Assembly: GCA_963737265.1 (NCBI GenBank)
Contig: CAVTRY010000007.1
Coordinates: forward strand, 288,001-352,000
Length of the DNA: 64,000 nucleotides
DNA from: an uncultured delta proteobacterium
GTDB taxonomy: Bacteria; Myxococcota_A; Polyangia; Fen-1088
Reading direction: 5' to 3'
Of this stretch, positions 15,535 through 38,072 are shown in pieces (positions within the stretch are counted from its first letter, which is position 1; each line of letters opens with the position of its first letter). The notes below the pieces were generated by a model. The model made no database searches. It saw only the letters and a list, made by a program, of their open reading frames with translations, and was not told the DNA's origin. The translations under genes were made by a program, and so were the position numbers.

Positions 15535-15707
15535 TCAGTGGTCGAGAGGGCTTCGGACTCCACCAGCGCCGCGGTTCAGGACGTGGGTGTAGACCATGGT
15601 CGTGGCCACGTCTTTGTGGCCTAGCAACTCCTGAATCGTGCGGATGTCGTAGCCGTCTTCCAGCAGGTGGGTGGCGAAGGAATGACGCAAGGTGTGGGGG
15701 CTGACCA
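15535..15707 (-). pseudogene. intI: integron integrase, 3' remnant
   Basis: '[55 protein letters not shown]'; 5' part replaced by the emrB copy. Confidence 0.92.
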
Positions 15708-17020
15708 GCTCCGCGCTGTGCGGACTCGCCCCCAACCTGCCGGCGCTGATCTTGGCTCGCGTGGTTCAAGCGTTCGGCGGCGGCGCCATCACCCCCACCG
15801 GCCTGGCCATGATCGCCGAGGTCTTCCCGCCCAAAGAGCGAGGGCGCGCGCTTGGCCTGTGGGGCGTCGGTGTCGTGGTTGGGCCCGCTTTCGGCCCCAC
15901 CCTGGGCGGATACCTCACCGAGACGCTCGGCTGGCGCAGCATCTTCAACATCAACCTTCCCATCGGCGTAGTCGGCCTTCTCGCCGCCTCGCGGATACTT
16001 CGCGCCGACAAGCCGCACGCCGCGAGCCATCGTGGCTTCGATCTACCCGGGTTCGTGTTGCTCACCGCCTTTCTCGTCAGCGCACTACTCGGTCTCTCCA
16101 ACGGCAATCGGGAAGGTTGGACCTCGAACTACGTCGTTGCCTGCGCGCTTGTGAGCAGCGTCTCGTTCGTGCTTTTCCTCGCCGTCGAAAGCATCGTCTC
16201 CGAGCGCATTCTCGATCTCGGGCTATTCCGCAAACCCCAGTTCACCGTGGCCATGGTGGTGACGTCCGCGCGCTCGGTCGCCTTGTTCGGTGGCATCTTT
16301 TTGTTGCCACTTTTCCTGCAGGATCTGATGGGCCGAAGCGAGATCGACACCGGGTTGTTACTGCTTCCCGGCGCCTTGGTCATGGGGCTGGTCATGCTGG
16401 TCTCCGGCCGGATCGCGGATTGGCTCGGCACGCGCGTTTGCACGATTCTCGGCCTCTTGTTCATTGCTTGGTTCATGTGGACCTACCGCAGGCTCGACGT
16501 GACGACGAGCACGTGGGCCGTGCTCTACCCGACCCTGGTACGGGGTGTCGGGCTGGGTCTGCTGGTGACGCCGGTCATGACCGCAGCTATCAATGCCGTG
16601 CCGACGCCGAAAGCCGGCATGGCTTCTTCGATGTTGAGCTTGATTCAACAAATATCGGGCTCGCTCGGCATTGCCGTGCTTGCCTGCGTACTTGGCCGGC
16701 GTGCCACCTTCCACCTCGCGGTGGTGGGTCAGGGCCTGGATGCCGCGCGACCGGCCCTCGCCGGCGCAACCCGCGCCCTCGCCACGCGCGCGCTCGAGCT
16801 TGGAACGCCGCCCGCCGCGGCAGGCCTAGTCGCGCGCTCGCTCATCGCACGCCAGATCGCTGGAGCGGCGTCGGTACTCGCATTCAACGATGCCTTTCTA
16901 ATCGGCGCGGCCATCGTCGGCGCGGGAGCCATCCCCGCGCTTTTTCTCGCATCCAAGTCGAAGTCCAAGGCACGCGCGCACGGAGCCGCAGCGCAGGTCG
17001 AGGTTGTGGAGTAGAGGCCG
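15708..17020 (+). pseudogene. emrB: 5'-truncated duplicate of emrB (repeat copy 2)
   Basis: ~99% identical to 5929-7241; lacks the first ~96 codons; frame still open. Confidence 0.93.
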
Positions 17021-17186
17021 GGAGGCTGCTTTGCTATACATCCGTCCGAGCTGGATGGCGCCTTCGAGGGTGGACATCTTCTTATCGAAGGTCAGCGTGT
17101 TGGCGCCCTCGGAGCGATGGCGTGCGTGAATGAGGCGATTCGCGAGGCCGGCGCCGACGCCGGGATCGAGCGCAGCTGCCGCCTCG

Positions 17187-17492
17187 GACTTCCTTGGCTT
17201 CGGCGTTTTGGCGCGAGGTCTCGCCCAACTCTTCTGTCCTACCTGCCACGAGCGCTACGTTGTGGCCTGGAGCTGCAGAGGGCGCGGGTTCTGTCCAAGC
17301 TGTGGCGGCCGACGAATGAACGCGGGCGCGTTCAATCTGCTAGATCACCCCCTGCCCGAGGTGCCCTCGCGACAGTTTGTGATCACGGTGCCTTTCTCGC
17401 CGAGTTTCCGTTGGCCTTCGACCGGAAACTAAGTCCTGCGCATCTTCATCGACACCGTGGCGGCAAACGACCGCAGGCGTATGGCGGATCGA
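17187..17492 (+). pseudogene. ISCR/IS91 transposase fragment (Zn-binding region), interrupted by IS21
   Basis: 'CPTCHERYVVAWSCRGRGFCPSCGGRRM'; homologous to 23262-23580. Confidence 0.85.
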
Positions 17493-17528
17493 TGCTGGAC
17501 GTCAACTACATTCACCCGGTGACGTCAA

Positions 17529-18377
17529 TTACATCGCCCCATTGTTGTCGGGGGTAGTTGTCGTTGGTTGATCGGTAGTTGTCGTAGTTGTCGCTGGGGT
17601 GGTGACGCCTCTCTTTCGTGCTTCTTCGCTGCGGTAGCTGGGGCCGGTCATCTCAAGGATGACCGCGTGGTGGACCAGTCGGTCGATGGCGGCGGCGGTG
17701 GTCATGGGATCCTTGAAAATGCGGATCCAATCGCTGAAGACCAGGTTGCTGGTGATGAGGACGCTCTTGCGTTCGTACCGCTCGGCCAGGAAGGTGAAAA
17801 GGACCTCCATTTCATCGCGGCTCTGCTGGACGTAGCCGATGTCGTCGAGGATCACGGCGTGATAGATGTTGAGCGCGGCCAGTTCTCGTTCCAGGCGAAG
17901 GTCGCGCTTGGCGGCCAGCAGCCTCTGGACAAGCGCGAAGGTCGGCGTGAAGAGGACCCGGTAGCCGCGCCGGATGAGTTCGTGGCCGATGGCAGCCACA
18001 ACGTGACTTTTGCCTCGGCCGGGCAGTCCGAAGACGAGCAGGTTCTCCCCACGTTCGACAAAGCCACCCTCACACAGGCTCGCCATCTGCTTCATCACCT
18101 TGGGTGACAGCCGACCACGTTCCAGGGTGGCCAGGGTTTTCTCCGTGGGAAGGTCCGAATCGCGAAGCGCGCGATCGATGCGACGGGTTCGGCGCTCTTC
18201 GATTTCCAGTTCGGCCAGGTGCTGGAGGTATTGGCTGAAGGTCCACCCCTCGCGGCTGGCCTTGATCGCGATCTCCTCGGCGTGCCGGGTGAAGGCAGGC
18301 AGCTTGAGCGCGCGCAGAAGCACCAGCAGAGCGTCGAGCGCGCTCGGCTTGACCGTGTCTACGGAGACGTTGGTCAT
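17529..18377 (-). CDS. istB: IS21 helper ATPase
   Basis: Walker A 'GLPGRGKSH', 'ILDDIGY', 'AAIDRLVHH'. Confidence 0.93.
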   Translation of the reverse strand: MTNVSVDTVKPSALDALLVLLRALKLPAFTRHAEEIAIKASREGWTFSQYLQHLAELEIEERRTRRIDRALRDSDLPTEKTLATLERGRLSPKVMKQMASLCEGGFVERGENLLVFGLPGRGKSHVVAAIGHELIRRGYRVLFTPTFALVQRLLAAKRDLRLERELAALNIYHAVILDDIGYVQQSRDEMEVLFTFLAERYERKSVLITSNLVFSDWIRIFKDPMTTAAAIDRLVHHAVILEMTGPSYRSEEARKRGVTTPATTTTTTDQPTTTTPDNNGAM

Positions 18378-19873
18378 GATGCCACCTGTTCGAGGAGCAG
18401 GTCGTAGGACGCGAGATCGACCAGCGGTGCTTCGAGCGCGGGGACGCTCGGTGGATAGGTACTGTCCGTCGCCTGTGTGCATCTCTTCTTGGTTGCATCC
18501 GCCGTCAAGATGGTCCCATCGGCAAGCAGAGTCGTGAGCGCTTGCTCGACATCGGCTTCCATCGTGCTGGCGGCCAGGTGAAGAATGCGCAGGTATTCAA
18601 CGTCGCCTTTGATTCCAGGCTTGGTCGCCTGGATCGCGTCGTATGCCCGCCTGAAAGTCACGCTTGGAAACAGCTCTTCTCGGTAGACGTAGCGAGAAAA
18701 CGCGCCCGGCTTGCGCACCAAAGACCAGATGACGTGCCGGTAGTCGATGCGCGCGGTCTTGCCTCGCAGCCTGTCGCAGGCCAATTCCAAGTTGTCGGCG
18801 TAGTACACCTCGATTCGGTGCTCGAACACGCGGACTCTCACCCGTGCGCCGATCAGCCTCGACGGCACCGAGTAGGCGCACGACTTGACCCGGATGGTGC
18901 TCGTCGACGCCACAGGTGCCGTCATTTCTGCGTACTCCGGCAAACGCTCCACCACCAGCGGCCGCATGGCTTCGATCTCCTCGGCGACGCGCGGGCCTCG
19001 CGAAGCGTTGGCTTTGCGGACCACCTTGGCTACGAAGCGTTCGTAGTCGTCTTGGTCCGCGAAGTCGCGGCTGCCACGCACCAGCAACGCTTGTTCAAGC
19101 CGACGCTTGAGCGCGCCGTTGCTGGCCTCCACATCGCCGTTTTGTTCCTTGGCCCCGACGGCTGTAGTTCGTGGCTCCATTCCGAGGTGCCGCATGACCG
19201 CCTTGTATTCATCGTTGAAAGTGCGATCTTCCGCATCGCGAGCGATCTGATGTGTCGCCGCCGTCGAGTGGTCGGTTTGGTGGTATCGCGGCACCCGCCC
19301 AAGCTGGAACAGCGCCGACTGGATCCCTCGCCGAAGCGCTGCCAGAGACTCCGACAGACACGCGGTCGCCCATTGCCAGTTCGAGTACGGCAGCACCGTC
19401 ACGCACAAAAGGTGCACAAATAGCTGGCCCACGATCGTCACACCAAGCTCCGCCGTCGACGTGAAGTCGGTTTGCGCGGCTTCACCGGGCCGATGCGCCT
19501 GCGTGAACCAAATCTCACGCGCAGGACCATGCTCGGCCCGCCAGCGACGGATTCGCCGCTGCATTGTCCGAAGATGGCTCTCGTTGTACCGCCCTGGCTG
19601 CTTCGCCTCCAGCAGCTCCAGCACCGTCTGAGCCTCCAGCCCAGGCGTTTCCTCCAGCAACTTGGCCACGGCTGGCCAGTCCTCGGCGAACGCGTCAGGG
19701 CGCGTCCGCCACCACCGCGGCTGCCGTAGCTCCGACGGTAGCTTGCCCGCGGCGATGTATCGCCGCCCTGTCTTCCGGTCCATGCCCGCCTTCATGGCGG
19801 CCTGGCCTACTTTTCCAATCTTGCTCATCTCTTCCATCAAACGCCTCACTTGGGCGTCGGTGACCGGCTTCAA
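18374..19873 (-). CDS. istA: IS21 transposase
   Basis: 'AGMDRKTGRRY', 'PGEAAQTDF', 'YSVPSRLIG'. Confidence 0.92.
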   Translation of the reverse strand: MKPVTDAQVRRLMEEMSKIGKVGQAAMKAGMDRKTGRRYIAAGKLPSELRQPRWWRTRPDAFAEDWPAVAKLLEETPGLEAQTVLELLEAKQPGRYNESHLRTMQRRIRRWRAEHGPAREIWFTQAHRPGEAAQTDFTSTAELGVTIVGQLFVHLLCVTVLPYSNWQWATACLSESLAALRRGIQSALFQLGRVPRYHQTDHSTAATHQIARDAEDRTFNDEYKAVMRHLGMEPRTTAVGAKEQNGDVEASNGALKRRLEQALLVRGSRDFADQDDYERFVAKVVRKANASRGPRVAEEIEAMRPLVVERLPEYAEMTAPVASTSTIRVKSCAYSVPSRLIGARVRVRVFEHRIEVYYADNLELACDRLRGKTARIDYRHVIWSLVRKPGAFSRYVYREELFPSVTFRRAYDAIQATKPGIKGDVEYLRILHLAASTMEADVEQALTTLLADGTILTADATKKRCTQATDSTYPPSVPALEAPLVDLASYDLLLEQVAS

Positions 19874-19985
19874 AGGTGCCTCCTGCCCGCTTGCGGGCTT
19901 GGAGGTCTACCTCACGGTCACCGTCGCGCCTCAAAGCGGGGCGACGTAGCTGTCGTCTTTGGGGAGATGTAATTGTCGCTCAGCA

Positions 19986-20068
19986 GATCGAGGCATTCCC
20001 GGCAGCAAGCATGGCGCGGTCGCAGTCATCCAGTGCGCCAACAGCGACCTGCGCTGTAACCCTCATTC
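19986..20068 (+). pseudogene. continuation of the ISCR/IS91 transposase
   Basis: 'DRGIPGSKHGAVAVIQCANSDLRCNPH' resembles the IS91 'GAVT.IQR...NPH' motif and continues the fragment left of IS21. Confidence 0.75.
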
Positions 20069-20189
20069 TACCGGGCGGTGGCGACGTCGCTTCCCACCTG
20101 CACGTGGCGCGCGGTGTGCCGCCGGGCCGAACGACAGTGCGCCTGGCCGCAACCGAAAACCTGGGCTCGCAGGTCGTTCCTTATCTCAA

Positions 20190-20510
20190 CCGGCTTTCTT
20201 TGCTGCTGTTCTCGATGGGCAAGCCACCCTTGACGGTGTGCCAGCACTGCTCGACACGCATGAGCTGCTTGTAGCCAAGCGCCAGCCAAGGCCATCCTAG
20301 AGAAGAACGGCTTTTCCGACGTCACCAATGCCGGAGGGCTCAAGGACATGCCGCCCCGCTAGTCTTGTGTGACACGTTCACGTACGAACGGCAGCACCTT
20401 CTTGTGTCTGGCTCAACGTGCATGCCCACGTGCGCGTGGGCGCCAATGACCGCGACGGACTCGAGCACCTGTGCCGGTACCTTGCCAGGACGCCGATTGC
20501 GAACGCGGTC
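20190..20510. pseudogene. mosaic of fragments: IS1634-like (minus), rhodanese C-terminus (plus), ISCR transposase (plus)
   Basis: 'YKQLMRVEQCWHTVK'; 'AKAILEKNGFSDVTNAGGLKDM*'; 'NVHAHVRVGANDRDGLEHLCRYLARTPIA'. Confidence 0.55.
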
Positions 20511-20706
20511 TGCAAGTAGGCGCCCCAGTGCCAGCGCCGCGGGTGGAGCAACCCTCGGCGCTTCACCTCGGTGGCAATCTCCTCGTCACTCAGACCTGCC
20601 GAGAACAGCGCCGCGATGGCTTGCTCCACCTCGACGGAGGATCGATACCATCCGGACCCGCGTCCCAGCCGCGCAACGGTCAGCTCGCTCACCGCTCCCG
20701 TCTGCC

Positions 20707-21390
20707 CTACATCGTCGCGAACAAGCCTTGCAGCATGCCGGCGAGGGCGGTCAGAAGTTGCTCCACGTCGAGCGCGGGCGGATGGTGCACGAGCGTGCGG
20801 CCTACGTTGCCCAAGGTCACGCACGCGAGCCAGGCCATGGGGCGAACACTGTCCTCCGTGCGATTGAAACGTGTGGCGAAGATTCTGGTGGTGGCTTCCG
20901 AGAAGGACTGAATCTCCGCGCCCGATATCTCTTCCTGCAGCTCTTCCGAAATCGCTCGCAGGCGCGCAGGCGCATCCGCGTGCAGCTCGGCCATTGCACG
21001 CGTCAATCCGACCATGACATCGACCATGTCCAGTCCAGGATCCGCAAGGCGAGCCAGCGTGTGCTGAATGAGAGGCATCACCTGGTCGCGGTGTCGTTCT
21101 TGTAGTGCCGCGAAAATCGCCTCCTTGTTGGGAAAGTATTGGTAGAGCGAGCCGATGGACACGCCGGCGCGTTCCGCGACCGCATTGGTGGTCACCCCGA
21201 GCCTGCCGTGCTCTACCAGCAATCGGCCGGCCGCCTCGACGATGGCGTCCACGGTTTGGCGGGACCGATCTTGCGCCGGGTCTCGTCGTGGACGACGGTC
21301 GAGCCGAGGTCCCGGAATGTGAGCCGGCGCTGCCCTTATGGGGCGTGCCTGTCGCGTTCCGATCGGTGTTTTGCGGGTTTTGCCGTTCAT
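20707..21390 (-). CDS. TetR/AcrR-family regulator
   Basis: 'TTNAVAERAGVSIGSLYQYFPNKEAI'. Confidence 0.9.
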   Translation of the reverse strand: MNGKTRKTPIGTRQARPIRAAPAHIPGPRLDRRPRRDPAQDRSRQTVDAIVEAAGRLLVEHGRLGVTTNAVAERAGVSIGSLYQYFPNKEAIFAALQERHRDQVMPLIQHTLARLADPGLDMVDVMVGLTRAMAELHADAPARLRAISEELQEEISGAEIQSFSEATTRIFATRFNRTEDSVRPMAWLACVTLGNVGRTLVHHPPALDVEQLLTALAGMLQGLFATM

Positions 21391-21479
21391 GGGGAAAGGC
21401 GAGTTTTCACGGTAAAAACAAACGTGCATGCTTTCAGCGAGAACCTAGCCCGCACAGCGGGCAGCAAGGAGCGAGTGCC

Positions 21480-22070
21480 ATGCAACCATCGAAGGCAACC
21501 GAGAGCAAGATCGTTCACACCTGTCCAGTCTGGATTGGCCACCTATTGGCTAGCCCTCTGCGACGCCTGTTCGAGAACCCGGCCACCGTTGTCCTGCCGT
21601 TGCTCAGACCCAAGGATCGCGTGCTCGAGCTTGGCCCGGCGCTGGGATTCTTCACCCTCCCGGTCGCCGAGGCGCTGGGTCCTGAAGGAAAGCTCGTGTG
21701 CGTCGACGTGCAGGAAGGCATGCTGCGACGATTGCGCAGACGCCTCGAGAAACGCGGGCTCGCCGGCCGAACCGAGTTGCGCCAATGCACGCACGAAGAT
21801 CTCGGGCTTGCTGACCTCGAAGGAACCTGCGATCTCGTGCTCGCGCTTCACGTGATCCACGAGACCGTTTCGCCTGCCGGAACCATGAAGGCACTGGCCA
21901 GATGCTTGAAGCCCGGCGGTCGCCTGTTGCTGGTTGAACCGCCCGGGCATTGCTCGCCCGCCGTTTTTCAATCAGAGGTCGAGGCAGCGGGAGCAGCAGG
22001 CCTGGAACGAGCTCCGCACCCGCGCGCCGAGGGCCGCAGGAACCTCGCGCTGTGGAGGCGACCCGCATAG
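21480..22070 (+). CDS. class I SAM-dependent methyltransferase
   Basis: AAGGAG RBS; 'VLELGPALGFF', 'VDVQ', 'LKPGGRLLL'; divergent from TetR. Confidence 0.85.
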   Translation: MQPSKATESKIVHTCPVWIGHLLASPLRRLFENPATVVLPLLRPKDRVLELGPALGFFTLPVAEALGPEGKLVCVDVQEGMLRRLRRRLEKRGLAGRTELRQCTHEDLGLADLEGTCDLVLALHVIHETVSPAGTMKALARCLKPGGRLLLVEPPGHCSPAVFQSEVEAAGAAGLERAPHPRAEGRRNLALWRRPA

Positions 22071-22223
22071 GCAACCCTCTTGATGTGCACTGCCTACGTT
22101 CCGTTCGGAGTGCGGATACTGGAGGGGCGCGACAAGTAGGTGGGATTCGAAGTGCCGTGAACGATGTGAAATGAGCTGTAGATAACTCGACCACAGCCTT
22201 CGTCGGACGACGACTTCACCGGC

Positions 22224-22720
22224 GTGTCAATCGTGAAATGCTTGGCAGCGCGGAATCGCAAGGCGATGCGCCAGTTGGTGCTGGCGGTGGGGCCAGCGAT
22301 GTTGCGGGCGGTTCGCAAAGTGCTCGGGGGCGCGACGGCGCGGAAGACGTATTGCAGGACGCGGTCGAGGGACCGCTTCATGCTATCCGAGGATTCGGTG
22401 GCCCGTTCAGAGTCGCGCCCGCGACGGCAGGCGACTGCAGCTCCGGCGCCAAAGAAAGACGACGCCGCAGCGCCGTTCGCCGAAGCGAATGCCGTGCGTC
22501 GGGCGGGCGAGTTACGACAGGCCGTGGGGCTCTATCAGTCATTGCGACGGCAGTTCCCGGAATCGGGCCAAGCGTTGCTTGCCTCGCTGTCGGTCGCGGA
22601 TATTCTTCTCGATCTCGGCGATCCTGCGGGCGCCATCGGGGCGTATGATTCGTATCTGAATCGCAACCCGCCCGGCGCGCTGACCGAAGAAGCCTTGTTC
22701 GGCCGAGCCGAACTGCGCTC
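22224..22720 (+). pseudogene. fused remnants of an ECF sigma factor N-terminus and a TPR protein
   Basis: 'AMRQLVLAVGPAMLRAVRKVLG..AEDVLQD' followed by 'FAEANAVRRAG...YDSYLNRNPPGALTEEALFGRA'. Confidence 0.45.
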
Positions 22721-22989
22721 AGATCGATTTTTAGCCCACCCCACGGTGCCTGGCGCAGGTAGCGCGCGAAACGCGGGGTCGATAGAAGTTCGCAGGTTCG
22801 CCTCCAGCGCTCGCTTGGCATCTTGTGTGGGCGCGACCTTGTAGGCTTTGTAGTCGCAACTTTTTCGCGCCGTCTCCGCATCGACGTGTTTACGCAAAGG
22901 CGCTAGCACCTCGGTCCCCGCGGCACGCAGCTTGCGCAAATGGCGAATATTGAGCAGCACGAGGCCCGCCTCCACCGCCCACCAGCACG

Positions 22990-23060
22990 GCGGCACCGGA
23001 TCGAGAATGTTCGCGGTGGCTATGAACATCACCTTCGACAGATCGAACGGCAGCAACTTC
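22990..23060 (-). pseudogene. short Lon protease fragment
   Basis: 'LPFDLSKVMFIATANILDPVP' is the Lon AAA+ signature. Confidence 0.55.
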
Positions 23061-23088
23061 TGTAACCCGCTGACCGACATCCTCCTTC

Positions 23089-24141
23089 GTGGAGGCAGCG
23101 GCATGCGCAAAACCTGCGACCGGTTACACCTATGCCCGCCGGGAGCCGGAAAAGACTGCCCTTTTCCAGGTGCTCCAGCAGCACCTTCTGACCTTCGAGC
23201 AAGAGTGGACCGACAAGTCCGACGGCCGCACGCTGCCCAGCTTCGTGACTGACGAGCTGCACGACTTCCTAGGCTGTGGAATCTTGGCGCGAGGCTTCGC
23301 ACAACTTCTTTGCAAGACCTGCCACGAGCGGTATGCGGTCGCTTGGAGCTGCAAGGGTCGCGGCTTCTGTCCAAGCTGCGGCGGCAGACGCATGAACGCG
23401 GGCGTCCTGACTCTGGTCGACTACGTCCTGCCCGAAGTGCCCATCCGACAATTCGTGCTGACCGTGCCTTTCTCGCTGAGATTTCCCTTGGCCTCCGACG
23501 GAAAATTGCTCGGCCAAGTCCTGCGCATCTTCATCGACACCGTGGCGTCCAACTATCGCAGGCGCCTGGCAGATCGGGGTATTGCCGACGGCGAGTCTGG
23601 CGCCGTCACGCGATCATCCCCCCTCCGCGTCGTCATGTCGTCAGATATTCGGGGGTCATCTCAGCACACTCCAGCCTCCGCAGCCAAGTCGTCCCAGTCC
23701 CGGCCGCGGCCACGCCCGAGGAAAACGACAAGCCTTCACTGCTCCTTTCACACTACATTTCTTGGAGCCAGCTCCTAAAAAAGACATTCGACATCGACAC
23801 GATCTGCCCGTGCTGCCAAGAGCCCGCTGCGCCTCATCGCCATGATCGAGACCGAGGACACCATCAAAAAGATTCTCTCTGCCATGGGGCTACCCATCGA
23901 GGCGCCCAAGCTCTGGCCCGCACGGCCGCCTCCCTCGCAATCTGGTGGCGAGGGCGGAGACTGGCTGAACTGACGGCACCTCGACCAGGGCGGGATGGAG
24001 TAGACTGCCCTGCGTGCTCGAGAAAGACCCCGTCAGGCCCCAGAAACCCGGTCAAGTGCGCTGCGCCAACGTGATCGGGGCCGACCTGATGCGGTCCGAC
24101 AGGGTTCTCCAACGCTCAAAACACCCCTTCGAAATGCCTAC
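23089..24141 (+). mobile_element. internally deleted ISCR/IS91-family element with oriIS-like end
   Basis: Zn-finger N-terminus; jump at ~23610 from 'GAVT' to 'IIPPPRRHVVRYSGV' removes the HUH core; stop at 23973; ends CCCCTTCGAAATGCCTAC|GGTCA. Confidence 0.85.
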
Positions 24142-24274
24142 GGTCAAGCGCCCCTGGATGCAGGATCTCGTGGTGCGCTGAACCTGAGACGCTTCACTTC
24201 AAGGCAGATTTGCGATGCCGCCAGTCAATGAAAAACATCATCTGGTCTGAGCTTTTTCATGGTACTTTCAGCCG

Positions 24275-25423
24275 GTGATTCATCGCTCGGTCTATGAAGC
24301 ACTGGTGCGGCGGGCACTGACGCGTAGCCCTGTCGTTTCCGTGCTTGGGCCCCGCCAAGTGGGAAAGACCACCCTTGCTCGAACCGTTGCGCGCGTCCCC
24401 AGGGTGACGGTCTTCGATCTGGAAAACCCCGCCGATTTTGCTCGGCTTTCGGCGCCCATGCGTGCACTCGAACCCCTGCGTGGACTCGTGGTCATCGACG
24501 AGATCCAGCGGTTGCCGAAACTTTTCGAAATTCTTCGCGTCCTTGCAGATCGGCCCCGGACCCCGGCAAGGTTCTTAATCCTGGGCAGTGCCGATCCGCG
24601 CCTGGTGCGCGGGGTATCCGAGAGCCTCGCGGGTCGTGTCAGTCACGTCGACGTCGGCGGGTTCGACCTTCATGAAGTTGGCGTGGACAGCTTCATTCGG
24701 CTTTGGCTTCGCGGCGGCTTTCCACGCTCGTTCCTGGGGAAATCGGACGGCGCCAGCCTGTCGTGGCGCCGCGACTATGTGCGGGACTTTCTTCAACGCG
24801 ATCTGAGCGAGCTGGGGGTGACCATTCCGGCCGCTACCTTGGGTCGCTTTTGGAACATGGTCGCCCACTATCACGGCGGGATCTGGAATGCCGCGGAGTT
24901 TGCCCGGTCCCTCGGAACATCGGAAAACACCGCTCGACACTACCTCGACATTCTCTCTGGTGCTTGGGCCGTGCGCGTCCTGCAGCCGTGGTTCGAGAAT
25001 CTGGGCAAGCGGCAACTCCGCTCCCCCAAGATCTATGTCCGCGACCCTGGGTTGCTGCACGCTTTACTTGACGTCGAGAGCCACCACCAACTGATGGGGC
25101 ATCCGAAGGTGGGCGCATCTTGGGAGGGCTTCGCCATCGAGCAAGTTCTTGCGGTCCTCGGAGTTCGCGAGGCCTATTTCTGGGGCACGCACCAAGGGGC
25201 CGAGCTTGATCTCCTGGTCACGCGCGGCGGGAGGCGCTACGGGTTCGAGATGAAGATGGCCGATGCTCCGACCGCTTCCAAGTCCATGCGGATTGCGATC
25301 GGGGATCTCAAATTGGAGCGACTCTTCGTGGTCTACCCAGGTCGGCAATCGTATCCGATAGACCGGCACATCGAGGTGCTTTCGATTCTAGACTTGCCGG
25401 CACGCCTTTCGGCTTTGAAATGA
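24275..25423 (+). CDS. AAA_14 ATPase with DUF4143 C-terminal domain
   Basis: 'GPRQVGKTT', 'IDEIQ', 'ESLAGR', 'PKIYVRDPG', 'ELDLL..FEMK'. Confidence 0.88.
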   Translation: MIHRSVYEALVRRALTRSPVVSVLGPRQVGKTTLARTVARVPRVTVFDLENPADFARLSAPMRALEPLRGLVVIDEIQRLPKLFEILRVLADRPRTPARFLILGSADPRLVRGVSESLAGRVSHVDVGGFDLHEVGVDSFIRLWLRGGFPRSFLGKSDGASLSWRRDYVRDFLQRDLSELGVTIPAATLGRFWNMVAHYHGGIWNAAEFARSLGTSENTARHYLDILSGAWAVRVLQPWFENLGKRQLRSPKIYVRDPGLLHALLDVESHHQLMGHPKVGASWEGFAIEQVLAVLGVREAYFWGTHQGAELDLLVTRGGRRYGFEMKMADAPTASKSMRIAIGDLKLERLFVVYPGRQSYPIDRHIEVLSILDLPARLSALK

Positions 25424-25679
25424 ATCTCGTTACCCGAGGCGCGGGGGATGTGTCGCGAGAGGGGTGTCTGCTAGTCTTTCCTGGCCATCCGGCCGAAACG
25501 GAGCAATCCGACCAGGGCAGCCTCCCGCCACGCCGAGGCCGGAGCTATCCGTGCGAATCTCTCGGTAGAGGACACCAAGGGTTGGAATCGCGAAGTCGGC
25601 GATAGGGTCCGTGTCGATTGCCGTTGTAACTTGTATTGAAGACCCAGCTACGAGCCAGGACCTCCTGGAGTTATGGCGT

Positions 25680-26386
25680 CGCAAATGCAACAAGTGTGAA
25701 ATTGCAGAGGAAATTACGCCTTGGCTGACTTGCCCCGCGAGCCCGGCGAAAGCATCGTTGTCGCATGTCCACCTCGCTCTGCCGTAACGCGTATGACCAC
25801 CGGCTTCGCGACATCACTTGCGAAGAAGGTGACCCCATGCTGTTCCGTGACCTCGGTGTGCCGCGCTCCACTGCGGCCAGCTGGATTCGCCGCGGCCAGC
25901 GCCCGGTCGTTTCCGCCCAGGTCCTTGCCTTGGACCAGCTCGAACTCCAGGCCGAGGTCCTCGCTCTTGAGCGCAGGATTAAGTTCCTCCTTGCCGTCAT
26001 CCGCTTGGCCTTCCTCCTTGTGCGCCTCTCCGGTTTTCGTCTCGACACCAAGCACGTGCCTGACGGCGCCACCAAGCGGTCCATCCTGGACGCCATCGCG
26101 CACGCCACGAAGGTTATCCCGCTTGCCGTGGCTCTCCGGGTGTTGCGGCTGTCCGCTGCAAGGTTTCATGATTGGAGCAAACGCCCGCCAGACTGCTCTC
26201 TCGACGATCGTTCGAGTTGCCCTCACACGTCGCCCACGCAGGTCACCGCCAAAGAGATTTCCGACATGCGGGACATGGTCGTCTCGAATCCAATCGAGAT
26301 CTGTCCTGTGAAGCGTGTCGACTACCGGTCCAAGACACGCCCGACACCTCGGATTCCTCTGCAATCTCCAGCGTGTTGCAATTGCG
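25680..26386 (+). mobile_element. internally deleted IS derivative with terminal inverted repeats
   Basis: TGCAACAAGTGTGAAATTGCAGAGGAA (25686-25712) vs rc of 26354-26380 (22/27); contains a transposase-like N-terminus 25765-26290; no TSD seen. Confidence 0.6.
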
Positions 26387-26602
26387 CGAAGGATCGGCTG
26401 CAATGTCCTGATTCGCAGCCGTGTTCTGCACTTTGTGAACATTGCGTCTCACGCGGCCGAGGCGCCTGCGAACCGGACCGGCGAGGACGAGATTGCGCTG
26501 TTCCTCGAGACTTGGTTCACCACACGCGCGCGCAGCGTTCCGTCAACAGCCCTCACGCGAACGCGAAGAAATTGGTTCGGGCCGGTGGACCTTCATGCCA
26601 CC

Positions 26603-28636
26603 ATGCCCGGAATGGAATCGGGCTTCGAGGCAAGCCAAAACAACAGGCCATGGCGCGGGTGGCTGCTCCTCGTGGGTTGCGCGGTGGCCCTGCTGGCCGC
26701 CCTGGGCGCGTACCGCGTGGTCGACGACCCGGATCTGTTTTGGCACCTCAAGGTTGGCGAACAAATCCTGGCCGAGCACGCGGTGCCGACCACGGATCGC
26801 TATTCGTACACCTTCGAAGGTCGTCCATTTCCCATCGTCGATTGGGCCGCCGAGGCGACGATGGCCTGGCTTCATCTGCGCTTCGGCGCTGGCGGACTCT
26901 TTGCCATGGCCGCGCTGTTGGCCGCGGCTACCATGCTCTTGGTGGCGCTTCGTATGCGCGCCGCCAGCGAACGGCATTCGCCCACGTTGGCTGCGCTGTT
27001 TCTGCTTCTGGTCTACGCCGTCGCGACTTTTCGATTCACGCCCAGGCCGCAAACCTTTCTTTGGGTCTGCCTTGGCGTTCTTCTGGCGCTTTTAGAACGG
27101 GCGCGGGACAATCGAGCTCTTGCGCCGGTCTGGCTGGTTCCGCCGTTGGCCGTGGTGTGGGCCAATCTCCACTCCTCGTCGATTCTTGCGTTGGTATTCC
27201 TGGGCGCCTTCGTCACGGGCGAGCTGTGGACGGAACGCGCGCATGTTCGCCCGCGCTTGGCGAAGACCTGGCGCGCCTTGCTTGGGCTGGGCCTGCTCAG
27301 CATCGCCGCGTGCTTCGTGGTGCCCCACGCGGGCGGCCGATTGCATGCTACGTTCGCTGCGTTTTTCTCGCCGTATTCCACCAGCGTGCTTTCGGAGTGG
27401 CAACCGACGACGCTGGACCAGTGGCTCGCGCCGAGCGGGCTTTTGCTGGTGCTGACCACAATGGGACTGGTTCTCGATCGCCGTCGCACGCACGCCTCCG
27501 AAGTGTTGGCTTTTGCCGTTGCCGCGTGGCTTGGATTTCGTCATATCCGCTTCCTGCCTATTCTGGCGCTGGTGGGCGCCCCCCTTGCGTACCGGCACTG
27601 GTTGAATCTGCTTTTCCGTCGAAGTCGACCGGGCGATGGCGGAGCGCCGCCACGCTGGACTCGAATCTGGGCGCGTGTCGATGGCTGGAGCGCGGTGGCC
27701 ATGATCGCGGGCTTCGCCTGGGCGACCATGCTTGCGGACAGCAGGAGCCCGTGGCTGGGCGGGTTGGGGAAGCCCCACGCCGACTTCGCGGGCATGGCGT
27801 ATCCCGTGGGAGCGACGGATTTCCTGGCCCGGGAACGTCCCGGCGGGCACATGTACAACACTTTTCACTTCGGCGGCTATTTGCTCTACCGGCTGGGACC
27901 AGAGGTGAAAGTGTTTGTCGATGGGCGCACATCCAACGTTTACGACGACGCGCACATGCGTGATGTCATGGAAATTCGTTCGAGGTGGCGCCACACCTTT
28001 GCCCGCTGGGATATCCAGTACGCGGTGGTTCAGCACGGGGAAATCGAAGACCAGCTCGCGGCGGATCCTCGCTGGTCGTTGGTCTACCTCGACGATGCAG
28101 CGTTGGTGTTCGTGCGCAAGGATGGCGTGAACGCGGCCTTGGCGGGCAGGTTGGCATACCGCGCGTTGCGACCGCCGTTCGCTCGGCCGCCCGCCGACGA
28201 AGCCGAACGAACCCTGTTTGTCGAAGAGTGCGAGCGCGCGGTTCGCGAAGCGCCTCGTTCAGCGCTGGCGCGTATCCTGCGTGGACGGGCGCGGGCGGCC
28301 ACCGGTGATGTGCCGGGATTCGAGGCGGACATGCACGAGGCAAGGACCTTGGATCCGACGCGTGCCGAACCATGGATTCGGCTGGGGCTGCTCGCCTTCG
28401 GCCGAGGACGGATGTTGGAAGCGGCCGAGAGCCTGGCGCGCGCTGCGGTGCTGGAAAGGAACCCCAACGTTTTCGGCATGCAAAGGGCCGCCGCGAACCT
28501 GGCGTTGGGAAATCGGAGTGCCGCGCTCGAACATTCTGCGCCCTCTGGTCAACGAAGGTCACGGCATCGAGGATCTTCTGTCGACAGCGACCGCGCTGGC
28601 GTCCGGGGGCGGAAGCAAGCCCTAGCGACGGGCTAA
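26603..28636 (+). CDS. polytopic membrane protein (GT-C-like) with C-terminal TPR
   Basis: 'DPDLFWHLKVGEQI', 'WANLH', 'GGYL...VFVDGR'; the tail may be frameshifted. Confidence 0.65.
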   Translation: MPGMESGFEASQNNRPWRGWLLLVGCAVALLAALGAYRVVDDPDLFWHLKVGEQILAEHAVPTTDRYSYTFEGRPFPIVDWAAEATMAWLHLRFGAGGLFAMAALLAAATMLLVALRMRAASERHSPTLAALFLLLVYAVATFRFTPRPQTFLWVCLGVLLALLERARDNRALAPVWLVPPLAVVWANLHSSSILALVFLGAFVTGELWTERAHVRPRLAKTWRALLGLGLLSIAACFVVPHAGGRLHATFAAFFSPYSTSVLSEWQPTTLDQWLAPSGLLLVLTTMGLVLDRRRTHASEVLAFAVAAWLGFRHIRFLPILALVGAPLAYRHWLNLLFRRSRPGDGGAPPRWTRIWARVDGWSAVAMIAGFAWATMLADSRSPWLGGLGKPHADFAGMAYPVGATDFLARERPGGHMYNTFHFGGYLLYRLGPEVKVFVDGRTSNVYDDAHMRDVMEIRSRWRHTFARWDIQYAVVQHGEIEDQLAADPRWSLVYLDDAALVFVRKDGVNAALAGRLAYRALRPPFARPPADEAERTLFVEECERAVREAPRSALARILRGRARAATGDVPGFEADMHEARTLDPTRAEPWIRLGLLAFGRGRMLEAAESLARAAVLERNPNVFGMQRAAANLALGNRSAALEHSAPSGQRRSRHRGSSVDSDRAGVRGRKQALATG

Positions 28637-28844
28637 GCGAGGGGCCAGGTCGCCGCGCTGGTGCTTTTCCCGGGCGGTGAAGTCGAGACGGACACGTCTT
28701 CTCCAATCGTGCCATCCTGGAGAGGCGCCCCTTTCTGCCGCCTTCCGCGACGTCGCTGCGCTTGTCGCGAGATTACGGGGGGAACTACTACGCTTGCCTT
28801 ACTCGTCAGTAGATTGGTAAGGCAAAGCTGCGAGGCTACGGGGG

Positions 28845-29507
28845 CTATTTCGCGCCCGCTTTCTGCGCGCGGACGGCCTCGCGCCATTCGTAGAGTTGCT
28901 CGCGATAGGCTTCGGCGATATCGTGAGCCTTGAGCTGCTGCTCCTGCGCGAGCAACGCTTCGGCATCGAAATACGCCTTGGTGTCGTTCTCGTCCATTTG
29001 TGCCTGCGCATCCGGGTGTTTGGCCTCACTGCTCGATGAGCCGCCGGGCAACGCGTGCCGAAAGCCTCCGCCTCTTCCCATTCCACGTCCGCCTCCCCCG
29101 CCAGGCCCGCGACCTCCGCCGCCGCCTCCGGGCGAATTTGAATCCTGGCCGTTGTTGGTCGGCGCGCTTGCTGGAGCGGCCTCGCTGCTCTTGCCGGAGC
29201 TCGGCGCGGCCGTCTTCTTACTGTTGCCGCCAGGCTGATTGGCGGCGCGAATAGCCTCGTTGGCGGCCAGCATTTGCCGGTCGATGTCTTCCAGCTTCGT
29301 CGTTTGCTCCAGGGTCAGTTGCAATTCACCTTGGTGGGCCAAAACTGCTGCGACTGACGAATGAAACAGCGGAGGCTTCGGGGCTGGTGCGGGCGCCGCC
29401 AAGACAGGCTGGGCTACCGGTTCGAGCGGCGCCTCGGCGCATGCCATGGTCAGTACCAGCAGCGTCGTCAAACATGTCCTGCCAATTGTTGCGCTACACG
29501 CGGACAT
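28845..29507 (-). CDS. hypothetical lipoprotein with Gly-rich segment
   Basis: 'LLVLTMAC' lipobox-like; 'ELQLTLEQTTKL' helical Spy-like motif. Confidence 0.55.
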   Translation of the reverse strand: MSACSATIGRTCLTTLLVLTMACAEAPLEPVAQPVLAAPAPAPKPPLFHSSVAAVLAHQGELQLTLEQTTKLEDIDRQMLAANEAIRAANQPGGNSKKTAAPSSGKSSEAAPASAPTNNGQDSNSPGGGGGGRGPGGGGGRGMGRGGGFRHALPGGSSSSEAKHPDAQAQMDENDTKAYFDAEALLAQEQQLKAHDIAEAYREQLYEWREAVRAQKAGAK

Positions 29508-29638
29508 GGGCGGCAATCTACTCCTTGTTGGTCGTGCAATGTGCGGCCACAGCAGCAAAGCAGAACGGGCGGCCAGGGGCGAGTGACTGCCGAATTCGCA
29601 CTCTCCTTGCAGCAAGGATTCTGGAGTAAGAAGAGCGC

Positions 29639-30262
29639 ATGAAGACCTTCAATGGCGTCGAAGTCTACGAAAGCCTCAACGAAATCGTCGATTCGTCCCA
29701 CAGTTGTCTCGTGGTTTGGGACGTACAACAGGGGCTGGTCAACCGCATCTTCAACAAGGATGCTTTTCTGGCTTCGTTGGCGTGCTTGCTGGATGGGTTA
29801 CGGGGGAAAATCCCCATCGTCTACACCCTCATCACGCCCTTGCCCCAGGCGTACCAATCGGGCTGGAATCTGCTTTCAATGATGCGAAGGTGGCAAGTCG
29901 ACGACCCGGCGAAACTGCCGGCATTCATGGCACCGGGCTCCCCGGAAAGCGAGATTCCGCAGGCTATAAAGCCGCATGCCGGCGATATCCAGATCGCAAA
30001 ATCCACGCCCAATATTTTTCTCGGCACCAACGTCGAGCTGATGATGAAGAATCGGGGCATCAAGAGTCTGATTTTTACCGGCATCGCCACCGAAATGGGG
30101 GTTGAGCATTCCGCCCGCGATGCGGGTGCACGTGGGTTCTACCCGGTGGTCGTGACCGACTGTGTTTCTTCCATGAGCCGCGAAGGGCACGAAAGATCCC
30201 TGGCCAATCTGGCAAGGCTGACGACGACGGCTAGTTGCAAGGAGATTCTCGACTGCTACTGA
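29639..30262 (+). CDS. isochorismatase/cysteine hydrolase family protein
   Basis: 'LVVWDVQ', 'GIATEMGVEHSARDA', 'VVTDC'. Confidence 0.85.
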   Translation: MKTFNGVEVYESLNEIVDSSHSCLVVWDVQQGLVNRIFNKDAFLASLACLLDGLRGKIPIVYTLITPLPQAYQSGWNLLSMMRRWQVDDPAKLPAFMAPGSPESEIPQAIKPHAGDIQIAKSTPNIFLGTNVELMMKNRGIKSLIFTGIATEMGVEHSARDAGARGFYPVVVTDCVSSMSREGHERSLANLARLTTTASCKEILDCY

Positions 30263-30286
30263 GTCGAAGGTGCGAGGACGCTTCCG

Positions 30287-30952
30287 CTACTCGCTCAGAC
30301 TTTCGAGTGTGTTCCGGTCAAGGATACGCAGGCGTTTGTCGTCGATCAGCTCGACCACGCCGTTGTCGGCCAGCTTGCGCAGTACGCGCGAGAAGGTTTC
30401 GCTGGTCAGGTTGAGCTGCGAGGCAATGTGTTTCTTGAGCCCGGCGAGTCCCACCCCACCGCGCGCGTCCTGGCCGGCCTGGAGAATGTGGCGGGCCACG
30501 CGGCCGCTGGCGTCGCGCAAGGCGATGTCTTCGATGAGGTCGGTCAAGCGGCGCACCCAGTGACTCATGCCCACGAGCAGCTCCAGGCAAAACGCGTGCT
30601 CCTCGCGAAGCATGGCCAGGATCGCCGTCGCCGGCAGTAGCGCACACTGCGCGGCTTGCGTGACCTCGGCGTAAGCCGGGCACGGGAAGCCCCCGATGAC
30701 CGCGACCTCGGCAAAGGTTTGCCCGGCGCCCGCCATGTGCAGCGTGTGCTCTTTGCCGCCCGCGCCGATCCGGTACACGCGCACAACGCCGCTGCCCACG
30801 CAGTAAATTCCGGGACAGGGATCCTCTTGCCGGAAAACCAGCGTGCCCGCCGCGAAGGTCACCCTGCGCGCCATGTCCACCAGCCGGCGCTTGTGCGCCG
30901 GGCTGACGTCGTGAAAAAGCGAGCAGGCTGAGATGATGGCGCCCTTGTCCAT
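30287..30952 (-). CDS. Crp/Fnr-family regulator (HcpR/Dnr-like)
   Basis: cNMP-binding fold 'GQTFAEVA', HTH 'IASQLNLTSETFSRVL'; divergent from hcp. Confidence 0.88.
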   Translation of the reverse strand: MDKGAIISACSLFHDVSPAHKRRLVDMARRVTFAAGTLVFRQEDPCPGIYCVGSGVVRVYRIGAGGKEHTLHMAGAGQTFAEVAVIGGFPCPAYAEVTQAAQCALLPATAILAMLREEHAFCLELLVGMSHWVRRLTDLIEDIALRDASGRVARHILQAGQDARGGVGLAGLKKHIASQLNLTSETFSRVLRKLADNGVVELIDDKRLRILDRNTLESLSE

Positions 30953-30974
30953 GGCGCGAAGAATGCGCGGGCGC

Positions 30975-30988
30975 TTGATCCAGATCAA
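30975..30988. promoter_or_regulatory. FNR/Dnr-type box TTGAT-N4-ATCAA
   Basis: Perfect TTGATCCAGATCAA between the regulator and hcp. Confidence 0.85.
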
Positions 30989-31051
30989 GGCGCCCAGCAC
31001 GTGAAATTGCCATCGTGGGGCATACCACCACCTACCAAAGGAGATCGCCCC

Positions 31052-32341
31052 ATGTTCTGCAATCAATGTGAGCAATTCAGCCGCGGCTGCGCCAGCGCGG
31101 GACCCGGAGTCTGCGGCAAGGATCCGGACGTGCAGTCGCTGCAGGAAACCATTCTGTTCGGCCTCAAAGGCATGGCTGCCTATGCGCACCACGCGCGCCG
31201 CCTGGGCATGGTCGACGAAACCGTGAACGCCTTCATGGAGGAAGCGCTCTTCGCCACCATGACCAACGTGAACTTCGACCTCGCGTCCCTGTTCCAGATC
31301 GCCATGGAGCTCGGCAAGGCGAACTTGCGCGTGATGCAGATGCTGGACGCGGGTCACGTGAAACGATTCGGTCAGCCCTCGCCCCTCGAGGTTTCGGAAG
31401 GCACGCAGGCGGGACCCGGCATCCTCATCACCGGCCACGACCTGGTCGACCTCGACGACCTGCTTCGCCAGTGCAGCGGTACCGACGTCAAGGTCTACAC
31501 CCACGGCGAGATGCTGCCGGCGCACATGTACCCGAAGCTTCGCAACCACCCGAACCTGGCCGGACACTTCGGCGGCGCCTGGCAGAACCAGCGCAGCGAG
31601 TTCGCTGCCTTTTCGGGCCCCGTGCTCGCCACCACCAACTGTGTGGTCATCCCGCCGCAAAGCTACGCCGGCCGTTTCTTCACCACGCGCGTGACCGCCG
31701 TGCCGGGCGGCACGCGCCTCGCCAGCAACGATTTCTCCGCGGTCATCGCCAAGGCCAAGGCGTGTCCGCCCCTGCAGAGGCCGGGCCTATCAAGAGGTCG
31801 ACCGTCGGTTTCCACCACTCGGCGATTTTGGCCCTGGCCCCCACCATCGTGGACGCTGTCAAGGCCGGCAAGATCAGCCGCTTCTTCGTCATCGGCGGCT
31901 GCGACGGCGCTGAAGCCGGCCGCAACTACTTCGCCGATTACGCTAAGCTGACCCCGCCCGACTCGTTCATCCTGACCCTCGGCTGCGGCAAGTTCCGCAT
32001 CCGCGAGCACGACTACGGCATGCACCTCGGCTTGCCGCGCCTGATGGACATGGGCCAGTGCAACGATTCCTACGGCGCCATTCAAGTCGCACTGGCGCTG
32101 GCCGGTGCCTTCAATTGCGCGCGTGAACGAATTGCCGCTCACCCTCGTGGTTTCGTGGTTCGAGCAAAAAGCCGTGGCCGTGCTGCTCACCCTGCTTTCA
32201 CTTGGCGTGAAGAAGATCGCCATCGGCCCCAATCCGCCTGCCTTCATCACGCCCGGCGTGTTCAAGATACTGCAAGACAAGTTCGATCTCCGCCTGACCG
32301 GCAACGATCCGGCCAAGGATTTGGCTGCAGCGATGAGCTGA
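31052..32341 (+). CDS. hcp: hybrid cluster protein (hydroxylamine reductase), short form; two apparent frameshifts (~31780, ~32118)
   Basis: '[13 protein letters not shown]', 'GHDL', 'THGEMLPAH', 'GCDG', 'GQCNDSY', 'SWFEQKA' spread over three frames. Confidence 0.88.
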
Positions 32342-32361
32342 GCGTGGATTCTCGCGCCAAA

Positions 32362-33104
32362 GCCCGCGGAGCCGGCATCAGTAGCCGAGCTTCGGCGATA
32401 GCCACCGCTCGGCATCCGCAACGCCGATGCCTTTGCGGGCGGCGTAGTTTTCCACCTGGTCGCGCGCGATGCGGCCGACATCGAAATAGCGCGCCTGTGG
32501 GTGGCCAAGGTAGATGCCGCTCACGCTCGCGGCGGGCCACATGGCGAAGCTTTCGGTTAGCGTGATACCAGCGGCGGATGCTTGTAGAAGATCGAAGAGC
32601 TTTTGTTTTTCGCTATGCTCGGGGCAGGCCGGGTAGCCGAAGGCAGGACGAATGCCGCGGTATTTTTCCGCGATGAGATCCTCGCTGGTCAGCTGCTCGG
32701 CCGCGCCGTAGCCCCACTCGCGGCGCACGCGTGCGTGCAACATTTCCGCCAAGGCTTCGGCCAGGCGATCGGCCAGGGCTTTCACGATGATGGCGTTGTA
32801 GTCGTCGCCGGCCTGCTGGTATTTCACCGACAGCTCCTCGGCGCCGAGCCCCGCGGTCACGGCGAAGGCGCCTACGTGATCCGCCAGGCCCGAAGCGCGC
32901 GGGGCGACGAAATCGGCCAAGCAGCGGAACGGCGGCTCGCCGCCTTGTTGGCGCAACATGGGGAAACGCACCTGCTCGCGGCTGCGGCTTTCGTCGGCGA
33001 AGAGCACGATGTCATTGTCCTCGCTGGCGGCGGGCCAGAAGCCATACACGGCCGAGGCACGGATCTGTTTGCCTTTCACGATGGCGTCGAGGGCTTTCTT
33101 GCCG
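32362..33104 (-). repeat. duplicate of the metH 3' end (~740 bp; partner 34393-35135), open as a 244-aa ORF 32378-33112
   Basis: Constant offset of 2031 bp with scattered substitutions; encodes most of the AdoMet reactivation domain. Confidence 0.93.
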
Positions 33105-33273
33105 CTGGTCACGAGCAGCTGTCAGGAAAATAGAGACTTTTCCTGTGAACAGAATCTGGGTTTGGCTCGAAATACCAAGAACGCAACGCCCCGAGAGGAC
33201 ACCGCTTTGGGCTTTGGGGCTTTTGCTTTCATCTTTGCGGCCTGGTACCTTCAGCACTTGATTGGAGGTGCAT

Positions 33274-34408: not shown

Positions 34409-38072
<3,664 letters not shown>

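Follow-up and report, generated by a model that had tools for sequence, protein, structure and literature searches.

The window analyzed here is a 64,000-nucleotide stretch of contig C7 (positions 288001-352000) of an uncultured delta proteobacterium whose 6.55-Mb genome, which we label G000, is assembled in 25 contigs. Within it the 3' ends of two housekeeping genes, the efflux permease gene emrB and metH, each occur twice: once in a full-length gene and again, beyond a block of foreign DNA, as a 5'-truncated tail copy (emrB' and metH'). Self-alignment of the window returns these two tails as its two long direct repeats, 1313 bp at emrB (99.24% identity) and 743 bp at metH (96.1%), each with exactly two copies in G000 and with spacings of 9779 bp and 2031 bp, as an initial annotation of the window had measured. 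That annotation had also noticed the sequence TGACCAG at both points of truncation, and had proposed that a nicking or joining activity, possibly the transposase of an ISCR (a member of the IS91 family), makes circles of gene tail plus cargo that integrate by single crossover. Its observation is partly confirmed by what follows, and its interpretation partly supported.

At emrB, the truncated copy starts within the remains of a different gene. On the + strand the letters at 15702-15708 are TGACCAG, followed by C, as annotated, and the sequence across this first joint is ...GGGGGCTGACCA/GCTCCGCG (here and below a slash between bases marks a break), compared with CATCGGTG/GCTCC at the matching place in the full emrB. 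The TGACCAGCT at the joint belongs to the native coding sequence of intI, an integron integrase gene that is cut short here: two longer copies of intI, on contigs C17 and C11, continue past the same position as ...CTGACCAGCTTGGGAAT. Because the intI sequence to the left of the joint runs on in these copies, joint 1 truncates intI, and intI and emrB overlap there by the 3 bp GCT. What the window retains is the last ~59 codons, with ~99% DNA identity over the intI part and 97.6% over a longer 382-bp stretch, and with TIGR02249, the model for integron integrases, the complete C17 paralogue reaches 456 bits (cut-off 265). A tblastn search of the window did not recover the remainder of the gene, which a simple insertion would have left there. 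Since GCT is common to emrB and the parent intI, the break may fall anywhere in 15707-15710; the motif named by the annotation is thus present, but its boundary, TGACCAG/C, is misplaced, as homology to emrB starts at 15708 (TGACCA/GCTCC). Joint 2, at metH, is TGACCAG/C, so that the registers of the two joints differ by 0-3 nt. The motif is missing from the full emrB and the full metH at the matching positions, and the codon phase, NTG ACC AGC, is the same at both joints, both as annotated. The hexamer TGGTCA (TGACCA on the other strand) occurs once in the 1071 nt of intI, and that occurrence is the site of joint 1. A restriction-site or cohesive-end origin of joint 1 was rejected, since its parents have only GCT in common. 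The site core used by IntI is G/TT, and secondary-site recombination by IntI was rejected as well, there being no such core at either joint.

At metH, the reverse strand of 33105-33111 is likewise TGACCAG, followed by C, as claimed, and in the sense of the gene the joint is ...GCTCGTGACCAG/CGGCAAG, compared with TTCGCCGA/CGGCAAG in full metH. The 12 nt preceding the break, which hold the motif, are foreign both to metH and to the Fic module next to them, and four other copies of the module differ at this position (CGTGTGCGAAGT); orphan stretches of this kind are often seen at illegitimate joints. An exact search of metagenome contigs for this end of the insert gave 0 matches. The insert as a whole is 1288 bp long and unique in G000, its cargo is a Fic toxin-antitoxin module whose DNA is matched at 85-89% in G001, G061 and three metagenome contigs, and no ISCR sequence was found in or beside it. 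The metH neighborhood is rearranged relative to G010. Despite 3.9% divergence, metH' is open throughout its 743 nt, with no stop codon or indel; its open reading frame (ORF; 32378-33112) opens with an in-frame GTG from the joint, and the 244 amino acids correspond to the MetH activation domain alone. The annotation had both host genes left intact. This is so for emrB, which is whole, but not for metH, which lies in three frames near 36282-36427 and has no intact ORF in the assembly: a relative's MetH aligns there (- strand) in frames -2, -3 and -1, with one of the shifts at a G run, and either an error in the sequence or a gene that is broken could explain the two frame changes.

The promoter-side end of the Fic module (window 33117-33170) was compared with five other loci (L023, L045, L047, L046 and L044). 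Its cut point varies over the six contexts, with the same long form in two of them, G001 and L045. We considered whether the module might itself be a tail-duplicating cassette and rejected this: of its three genomic contexts two have a tail copy next to it, and the third, in G061, has no flanking repeat in the 18 kb fetched.

Comparison with related genomes identifies the DNA behind emrB as inserted. The other genomes used are labeled G001, G002, G004, G008, G010, G012 and G061, and the family set comprises 89 genomes. In 3/3 relatives fetched for the emrB region, at ~80% identity (G010, G002 and G008), an isochorismatase gene follows emrB within 20-70 nt, and the ~22 kb that lie between the two genes here are therefore an inserted mosaic (Table 1). 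Read from emrB outward, the mosaic consists of unique bases and a small repeat, an ISCR oriIS remnant, an integron cassette array, the intI fragment, emrB', a PIN-like gene, a split ISCR and an ISCR with an internal deletion; we looked for a third emrB remnant before the isochorismatase gene and found none. The 38 bases just 3' of the emrB repeat are unique in G000. The oriIS remnant, 75 nt past the repeat, is 242 bp long and 90-96% identical to >20 G000 copies; together with the truncated second copy of emrB it may represent an ISCR capture unit. The metH locus has no ISCR. The attC-like repeats of the array and the group II intron recur on C17 and C11, in the arrays that adjoin the two intact copies of intI. 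A long, imperfect hairpin is predicted for one attC-like repeat (-30 kcal/mol, z = -4.95), and the intron gave the only Rfam hit. Beyond emrB', the PIN/VapC-like gene is cut at 17187 by a truncated, diverged ISCR. The transposase gene is degenerate or absent in the window's ISCR copies, and the homology of relatives to the region past the ISCR end at 24142 begins inside the next gene.

Some further features of the mosaic deserve mention. The 35-bp repeat at 7280-7314, which recurs on C14 and C23 of G000, is found in both orientations and often within ISCR copies, and resembles an end of a small non-autonomous element for which ISCRs are the target. Toward the far edge, at 25765-28636, long overlapping ORFs of 732 and 773 amino acids with no Pfam match follow a DUF4143/AAA_14 gene (24275-25423). 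A 521-bp query taken from the 3' part of intI, including some downstream DNA, has matches in 69/89 family genomes; many short hits are probably other tyrosine recombinases, and integron integrase genes may be common in the family.

The two copies of each tail differ mostly at synonymous positions. This holds for 8/10 differences at emrB and for 21/26 coding differences at metH, where 3 further differences lie past the stop codon, or 29/36 coding differences in all. Six outgroups allowed 24 of the metH differences to be polarized; at 18 of them metH' has the derived state, and of these 18 changes 14 are synonymous, 4 are non-synonymous and 14 are at third codon positions. Such a pattern suggests that the copies are alleles from different lineages, and divergence within working genes in separate lineages fits it better than decay in place.

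The arrangement is not confined to the window. Genome-wide self-alignment of G000 yielded 34 local direct repeats, 30 of which were inspected (short tandem arrays were left out), with the class 'complete gene, insert, 5'-truncated tail' assigned by hand. Five loci on four contigs have this build: emrB, metH, gshB, uvrA and mrdA-rodA. The mrdA-rodA insert contains an IS110 gene that the joint truncates, along with an IS91-family element and a further transposase; in the uvrA insert there are four TGGTCA hexamers, of which two, at 5 and 13 nt from the insert's ends, face the other way. Two further tail duplications occur at one gene in G001, a sister species assembled in 9 contigs. At the breakpoints of the gshB, uvrA, mrdA-rodA and G001 loci the sequences are unrelated, and the motif is flush with the joint at 0/3 of the other G000 loci and 0/2 of those in G001. 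The G001 locus (L023, contig C9, 7066-11543) comprises a gene with a weak, below-cut-off match to NucS_C and tail copies of 337 and 69 nt, which separate a RhuM gene, an ORF of no assigned family and a Fic module that is 89% identical to that of the window and lies beside the 337-nt copy; this locus looks like two successive stacking events. Elsewhere in G000, on C11, a 1197-bp repeat (1127001-1128197 and 1143876-1145072; 99.8% identity, 16.9 kb apart) spans exactly the start to the stop codon of a low-GC gene.

Table 1. Features of the emrB and metH loci (window positions) and, in the last three lines, the other gene-insert-tail loci of G000
Feature	Position	Strand	Details
marR, then emrA/HlyD	3891-4373, 4267-5643		upstream of emrB
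Full emrB (DHA2 efflux permease, 531 aa)	5640..7235	+	Pfam MFS_1; NCBIfam TIGR00711 397 bits, cut-off 230
emrB tail, copy 1 of 1313-bp direct repeat	5929..7241	+	self-BLAST 99.24%; ends 6 nt past stop codon
38 unique bases, then 35-bp repeat piece	7242..7315	+	oriIS-like CTATTGGTCA at 7259-7269; repeat piece 7280-7314
ISCR (IS91 family) oriIS-end remnant	7316..7561	+	no transposase gene; ends ...GCCTATG then GTCA
Insert 1, integron cassette-array fragment	7558..15707		
attC-like repeats in insert 1	7572-7626, 8204-8258, 12431-12524, 13129-13222		
Group II intron	10528-12524	-	RT ORF 10634-12007; TIGR04416; RF02001 at 12178-12349
UDG-like ORF	14314-15321	-	
intI 3' fragment, ~aa 298-356	15535..15710	-	tblastn; cut at its only TGGTCA hexamer
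Joint 1, TGACCA/GCT	15702..15710	+	3-bp GCT overlap between intI and emrB
emrB' (5'-truncated tail copy)	15708..17020	+	ORF 15692-17014
PIN/VapC-like gene 3' end, convergent	17046..17187	-	homologues in G004, G002, G012
Degenerate ISCR-B transposase gene	17187..20504	+	pieces 17187-17501, 19977-20066, 20412-20504; tblastn
IS21-family element splitting ISCR-B gene	17493-19985	-	Pfam IstB, rve
Second ISCR copy	22900..24147	+	~620-bp internal deletion; oriIS end ...GCCTACG then GTCA
Isochorismatase gene	29639..30262	+	direct neighbor of emrB in relatives; far edge of mosaic
metH' (5'-truncated tail copy)	32362..33104	-	743 bp; 96.1% identical to 34393-35135
Orphan stretch GCTCGTGACCAG, 12 nt	33105..33116	-	neither metH nor Fic module; holds joint 2 motif
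Fic/DOC module	33117..34114	+	61-aa upstream ORF 33274-33459; Fic 33443-34108; Pfam Fic
278 bases unique to G000	34115..34392		between Fic module and metH stop
Full-length metH	34393..38076	-	tail 34393-35135 is copy 2 of 743-bp repeat
gshB locus	G000 C13:96310-98769		690-bp repeat; insert is a satP-like gene
uvrA locus	G000 C12:345153-346107		195-bp repeat; 565-bp insert with PIN fragment
mrdA-rodA locus	G000 C15:138706-147908		678-bp repeat; 7.8-kb insert

A gene followed by foreign DNA and then by a second 3' end of the same gene is a footprint known from recombination in which just one side is homologous. We see about an even chance that homologous recombination on the gene side, combined with a single illegitimate joint, produced these loci, whether by single crossover of a recircularized fragment or by homology-facilitated illegitimate recombination (HFIR). 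Each locus would then record a single event in which foreign DNA was placed behind a gene, homology being used on the side of the gene and not on the other. A close relative would have carried the same gene with other DNA downstream, an ISCR remnant and integron in the case of emrB and a Fic module in the case of metH. Its DNA would have entered the cell, one side would have recombined homologously within or upstream of the gene tail, and the other, non-homologous end would have been joined illegitimately. Either the fragment closed on itself and the resulting circle of tail plus cargo entered by single crossover, or the free end was joined straight into the recipient gene, which is HFIR; both routes would give the order full gene, cargo, 5'-truncated tail and old downstream DNA, and both would keep a complete copy of the gene. 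It is important to note that the donor, the order of the steps and the choice between circle and direct joining are what we infer here, and that ordinary recombination between the 743-bp or 1313-bp direct repeats yields the same circle joint. In this scenario the presence of TGACCAG at both joints would be a coincidence.

One-sided homology with little or none at the other end is what both loci display, joint 1 having its 3-bp GCT and joint 2 its orphan stretch, and the variation of the left-end cut of the Fic module among contexts also speaks for it. The annotation's notion of a unit of gene tail plus cargo, joined to the chromosome through homology of the tail, fits the data as well, given the synonymous differences, the wholeness of emrB and an experimental precedent described in the accessible text of PMC3240628. 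In that conjugation experiment with E. coli, 56/60 recombinants are reported as single crossovers of end-nibbled, recircularized DNA and 4 as HFIR, and the single crossovers carry 109-950 bp duplications of the gene end. As in our loci, part of the 3' end of a gene is there duplicated around incoming DNA, with a variable illegitimate joint; the difference is that the experiment, as far as the accessible text describes it, used a laboratory construct with a suicide plasmid, whereas the loci here are natural and their repeats reach 1313 bp.

The annotation knew of no described system of this kind. Complex class 1 integrons formed with ISCR1, however, have the same layout (3'-CS, ISCR1, variable region and a partial second 3'-CS), and for them a rolling-circle product rescued by homologous recombination has been proposed, according to the accessible portions of PMC3940617 and PMC3575428. 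These portions describe a conserved segment, the oriIS end of an ISCR in like orientation, variable DNA, a 5'-truncated copy of the segment and another ISCR, all of which the emrB locus shares. It differs in being a chromosomal locus of a soil bacterium, in which the duplicated segment is the tail of a housekeeping efflux gene, the first ISCR has been reduced to a remnant that has no transposase gene and is not directly fused to the tail, and the variable region is a piece of an integron; at metH there is no ISCR. The circle-and-crossover picture of the annotation is thus reasonable and already described, but the enzyme it named is not supported. HFIR, for its part, has been proposed for type VI secretion system and Rhs arrays of Vibrio that keep displaced 3' ends (PMC5361080, in the text accessible to us), and in Streptococcus, Acinetobacter and Pseudomonas, from what is available of PMC3240628 and PMC5361080, it shares with our loci one-sided homology, microhomology of 3-10 bp and displaced 3' remnants downstream. 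Its classical products are an insertion plus a deletion, whereas here the deleted stretch of the recipient would be replaced by the donor allele, leaving a visible duplication.

Several observations weigh against this account. Among the genomes and contigs searched we found no donor or empty-site genome, nor any conspecific genome or contig of G000. The repeats end 0-19 nt past the stop codon in 6/7 cases, which a random process does not predict, and selection and shared hotspots are the only explanation we can offer, beyond which we cannot account for it. The synonymous bias is weaker at the other loci of G000 (5/9 at gshB, 4/6 at uvrA and 4/7 at mrdAB), and GC-rich third positions combined with a GC-to-AT mutation bias could yield part of such a bias without selection. 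Moreover, both joints are flush with TGACCA, and in intI that hexamer occurs just once. Taking all insert ends, the hexamer lies within 30 nt of 5/10, and within 30 nt of 3/8 once the two defining joints are set aside (P = 0.0002 relative to the genome background, P = 0.007 when hexamers are permuted within each insert), a span of 30 nt that was picked after the data were seen.

These last points lend themselves to a different explanation, in which a nuclease cutting at TGGTCA makes the breaks that are later joined to a gene tail, the most obvious candidate being the transposase of the abundant ISCRs acting at target-like sites; we regard this reduced form of the annotation's idea as possible but on balance unlikely. 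The motif itself is ambiguous. The annotation expected the 7-mer once per 15-20 kb per strand, and we find it more often, once per 11 kb per strand (589 and 608 copies on the two strands of the genome; observed/expected 0.87). TGACCAG was also considered as a Chi-like recombination hotspot and rejected, as it is not over-represented, ranking 7228 of 8192 heptamer pairs. Between any two joints, the probability of sharing a run of at least 7 bases near the joint (shift up to 2) is 0.003, and of at least 8 it is 0.0009; over the 21 pairs of the 7 known joints the chance rises, by simple multiplication, to ~0.02-0.06, and the finding came out of a scan over a great many windows. Within-insert permutation gives P = 2e-5 for a hexamer lying flush at the two distal ends, but the hexamer is locally common, with 65 copies in the window against 22 in shuffles and its four copies in the 565-bp uvrA insert. 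The occurrence of the motif at both joints is suggestive, and no consistent enzyme mechanism stands behind it.

The ISCRs of G000 are what makes a transposase a candidate. The full element is 1918 bp long, and an intact copy (C14, 444504-446421) encodes a protein with the domains of an HUH transposase (Y2_Tnp, E = 2.6e-16; Zn_Tnp_IS91, E = 4.5e-15) that matches the NCBIfam models for ISCR clade Ia and IS91 below their cut-offs (234 versus 925 and 65 versus 125). A genome-wide search found 28 oriIS ends, 26 of them usable, followed by GGTCA in 8, GGTCC in 9, GGCCN in 5 and GGGCA in 1, with a variant end in 3. Thus 23/26 have the form ...CCTATG then G(T/C)C(A/C/G), and the two ends of the element are unlike and lack inverted repeats, as in IS91 and ISCR elements. 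TGGTC(A/C) is present at 17/26 usable ends and TGGTCA at 8, which speaks for such a nuclease; the emrB locus, too, is rich in ISCR remnants, and the mrdA-rodA insert holds another IS91-family element. The annotation had pointed to GGTCA at both oriIS ends of the window, and both do abut it, but with 8/26 ends alike this is a feature of the whole family of copies rather than of the window. We examined the opposite, terIS end for a resemblance to the motif and discarded the idea, the left end of the ISCR starting with ATGCAAACG, unrelated to TGACCAG. Doubled or nested oriIS ends (e.g. CCTATGGTCCCTATGGTC) were seen on C12 (46243), C19 (10045) and C14 (418416 and 364195) of G000, as if ends had been re-used or re-initiated, and GGTC may accordingly be part of the element and not its target.

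In its accessible parts, PMC13181058 gives CTTG, GTTC and GTCC (the last for IS1294b) as targets of IS91-family elements, which are cut beside the tetranucleotide. By analogy, with an ISCR end of ...CCTATG and a target of GTC(A/C), the cut here would be TGAC/CA, which is 2-3 nt from both joints. The joints are instead TGACCA/G and TGACCAG/C; both retain CA(G), which at joint 1 is native intI, and this is not the cleavage site that the available description of the family implies. Neither are the gene-side breakpoints, CGGTG/G and GCCGA/C, like any target. The metH insert, free of ISCR sequence, the other duplications without a flush motif, the reversed and offset hexamers of the uvrA insert and the nested ends all tell against the transposase as the cutter. 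One-ended transposition of IS91 has, in the accessible text of PMC13181058, distinct oriIS and terIS ends with a target tetranucleotide beside oriIS, as do the ISCRs here, and read-through of the far end is reported to carry adjacent DNA in 1-14% of events; our loci differ in that no oriIS lies beside either joint and that the break position and the gene-side ends depart from the cleavage rule. We offer it only as a tentative and rather doubtful proposal, therefore, that breaks at TGGTC(A/C) in this genus, made by the ISCR transposase away from its own ends or by a like nuclease, seed tail-duplicating joints behind the stop codons of core genes.

Duplication in place, by a replication template switch or by unequal exchange within one lineage, with the partial copy decaying since, appears improbable. 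The 3-bp overlap at joint 1 is typical of template switches, and most of the derived changes at metH do lie in the partial copy and run from GC to AT. Decay, however, is hard to reconcile with 14 synonymous against 4 non-synonymous changes and no stop codon or indel in metH', the DNA past the second tail copy is not a second copy of the insert, and both inserts are foreign when compared with relatives.

We consider it more improbable still that the loci are an artifact of assembly, in which the assembly, derived from a metagenome, placed sequences of two strains living side by side one after the other. G000 has a completeness of 99.5% and a contamination of 7.6%, the soil metagenome run with the best coverage of the window is of low depth, and metH contains frame errors of the homopolymer type; among the contig pieces listed none bridges either joint (one stops at 15700, another starts at 15712), which is no evidence either way. 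A graph error, by contrast, needs an overlap at the false join, and the overlap here is 0-3 nt; the five loci with this build are spread over four of the 25 contigs, and the same build recurs in the 9-contig sister genome.

The least probable origin is a site-specific integrative element that brings a replacement 3' end for its target gene. The prophage e14 and phage 21 do this at icd, where the gene remains complete and its old 3' end lies beyond the element, and the layout does match; but those cases rely on an integrase and a short core site, whereas neither insert here has a recombinase with a fixed core site (no recombinase gene is present in the metH insert, and that at emrB has only the intI which the joint itself truncates), repeats of 743-1313 bp far exceed attachment sites, and the Fic module stands beside the tails of two different genes with different cut points.

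If recombination with one shared flank is the origin of these loci, partial 3' copies of housekeeping genes beside foreign DNA are scars that reveal the entry of islands by this route. With at least five such scars in G000 and at least two in its sister species, the route may be common in these soil bacteria, and the cargo of the inserts includes toxin-antitoxin or defense-type genes (Fic, PIN and RhuM) and mobile elements. In the emrB locus the layout of the ISCR1 complex integrons, familiar chiefly from clinical plasmids, has a counterpart on the chromosome of an environmental bacterium. Should the link to the hexamer hold, the positions of the breaks would be tied to an enzyme of the IS91 family, and a rolling-circle transposase would then generally drive the duplication of gene tails and the stacking of islands, including at loci where no ISCR remains.

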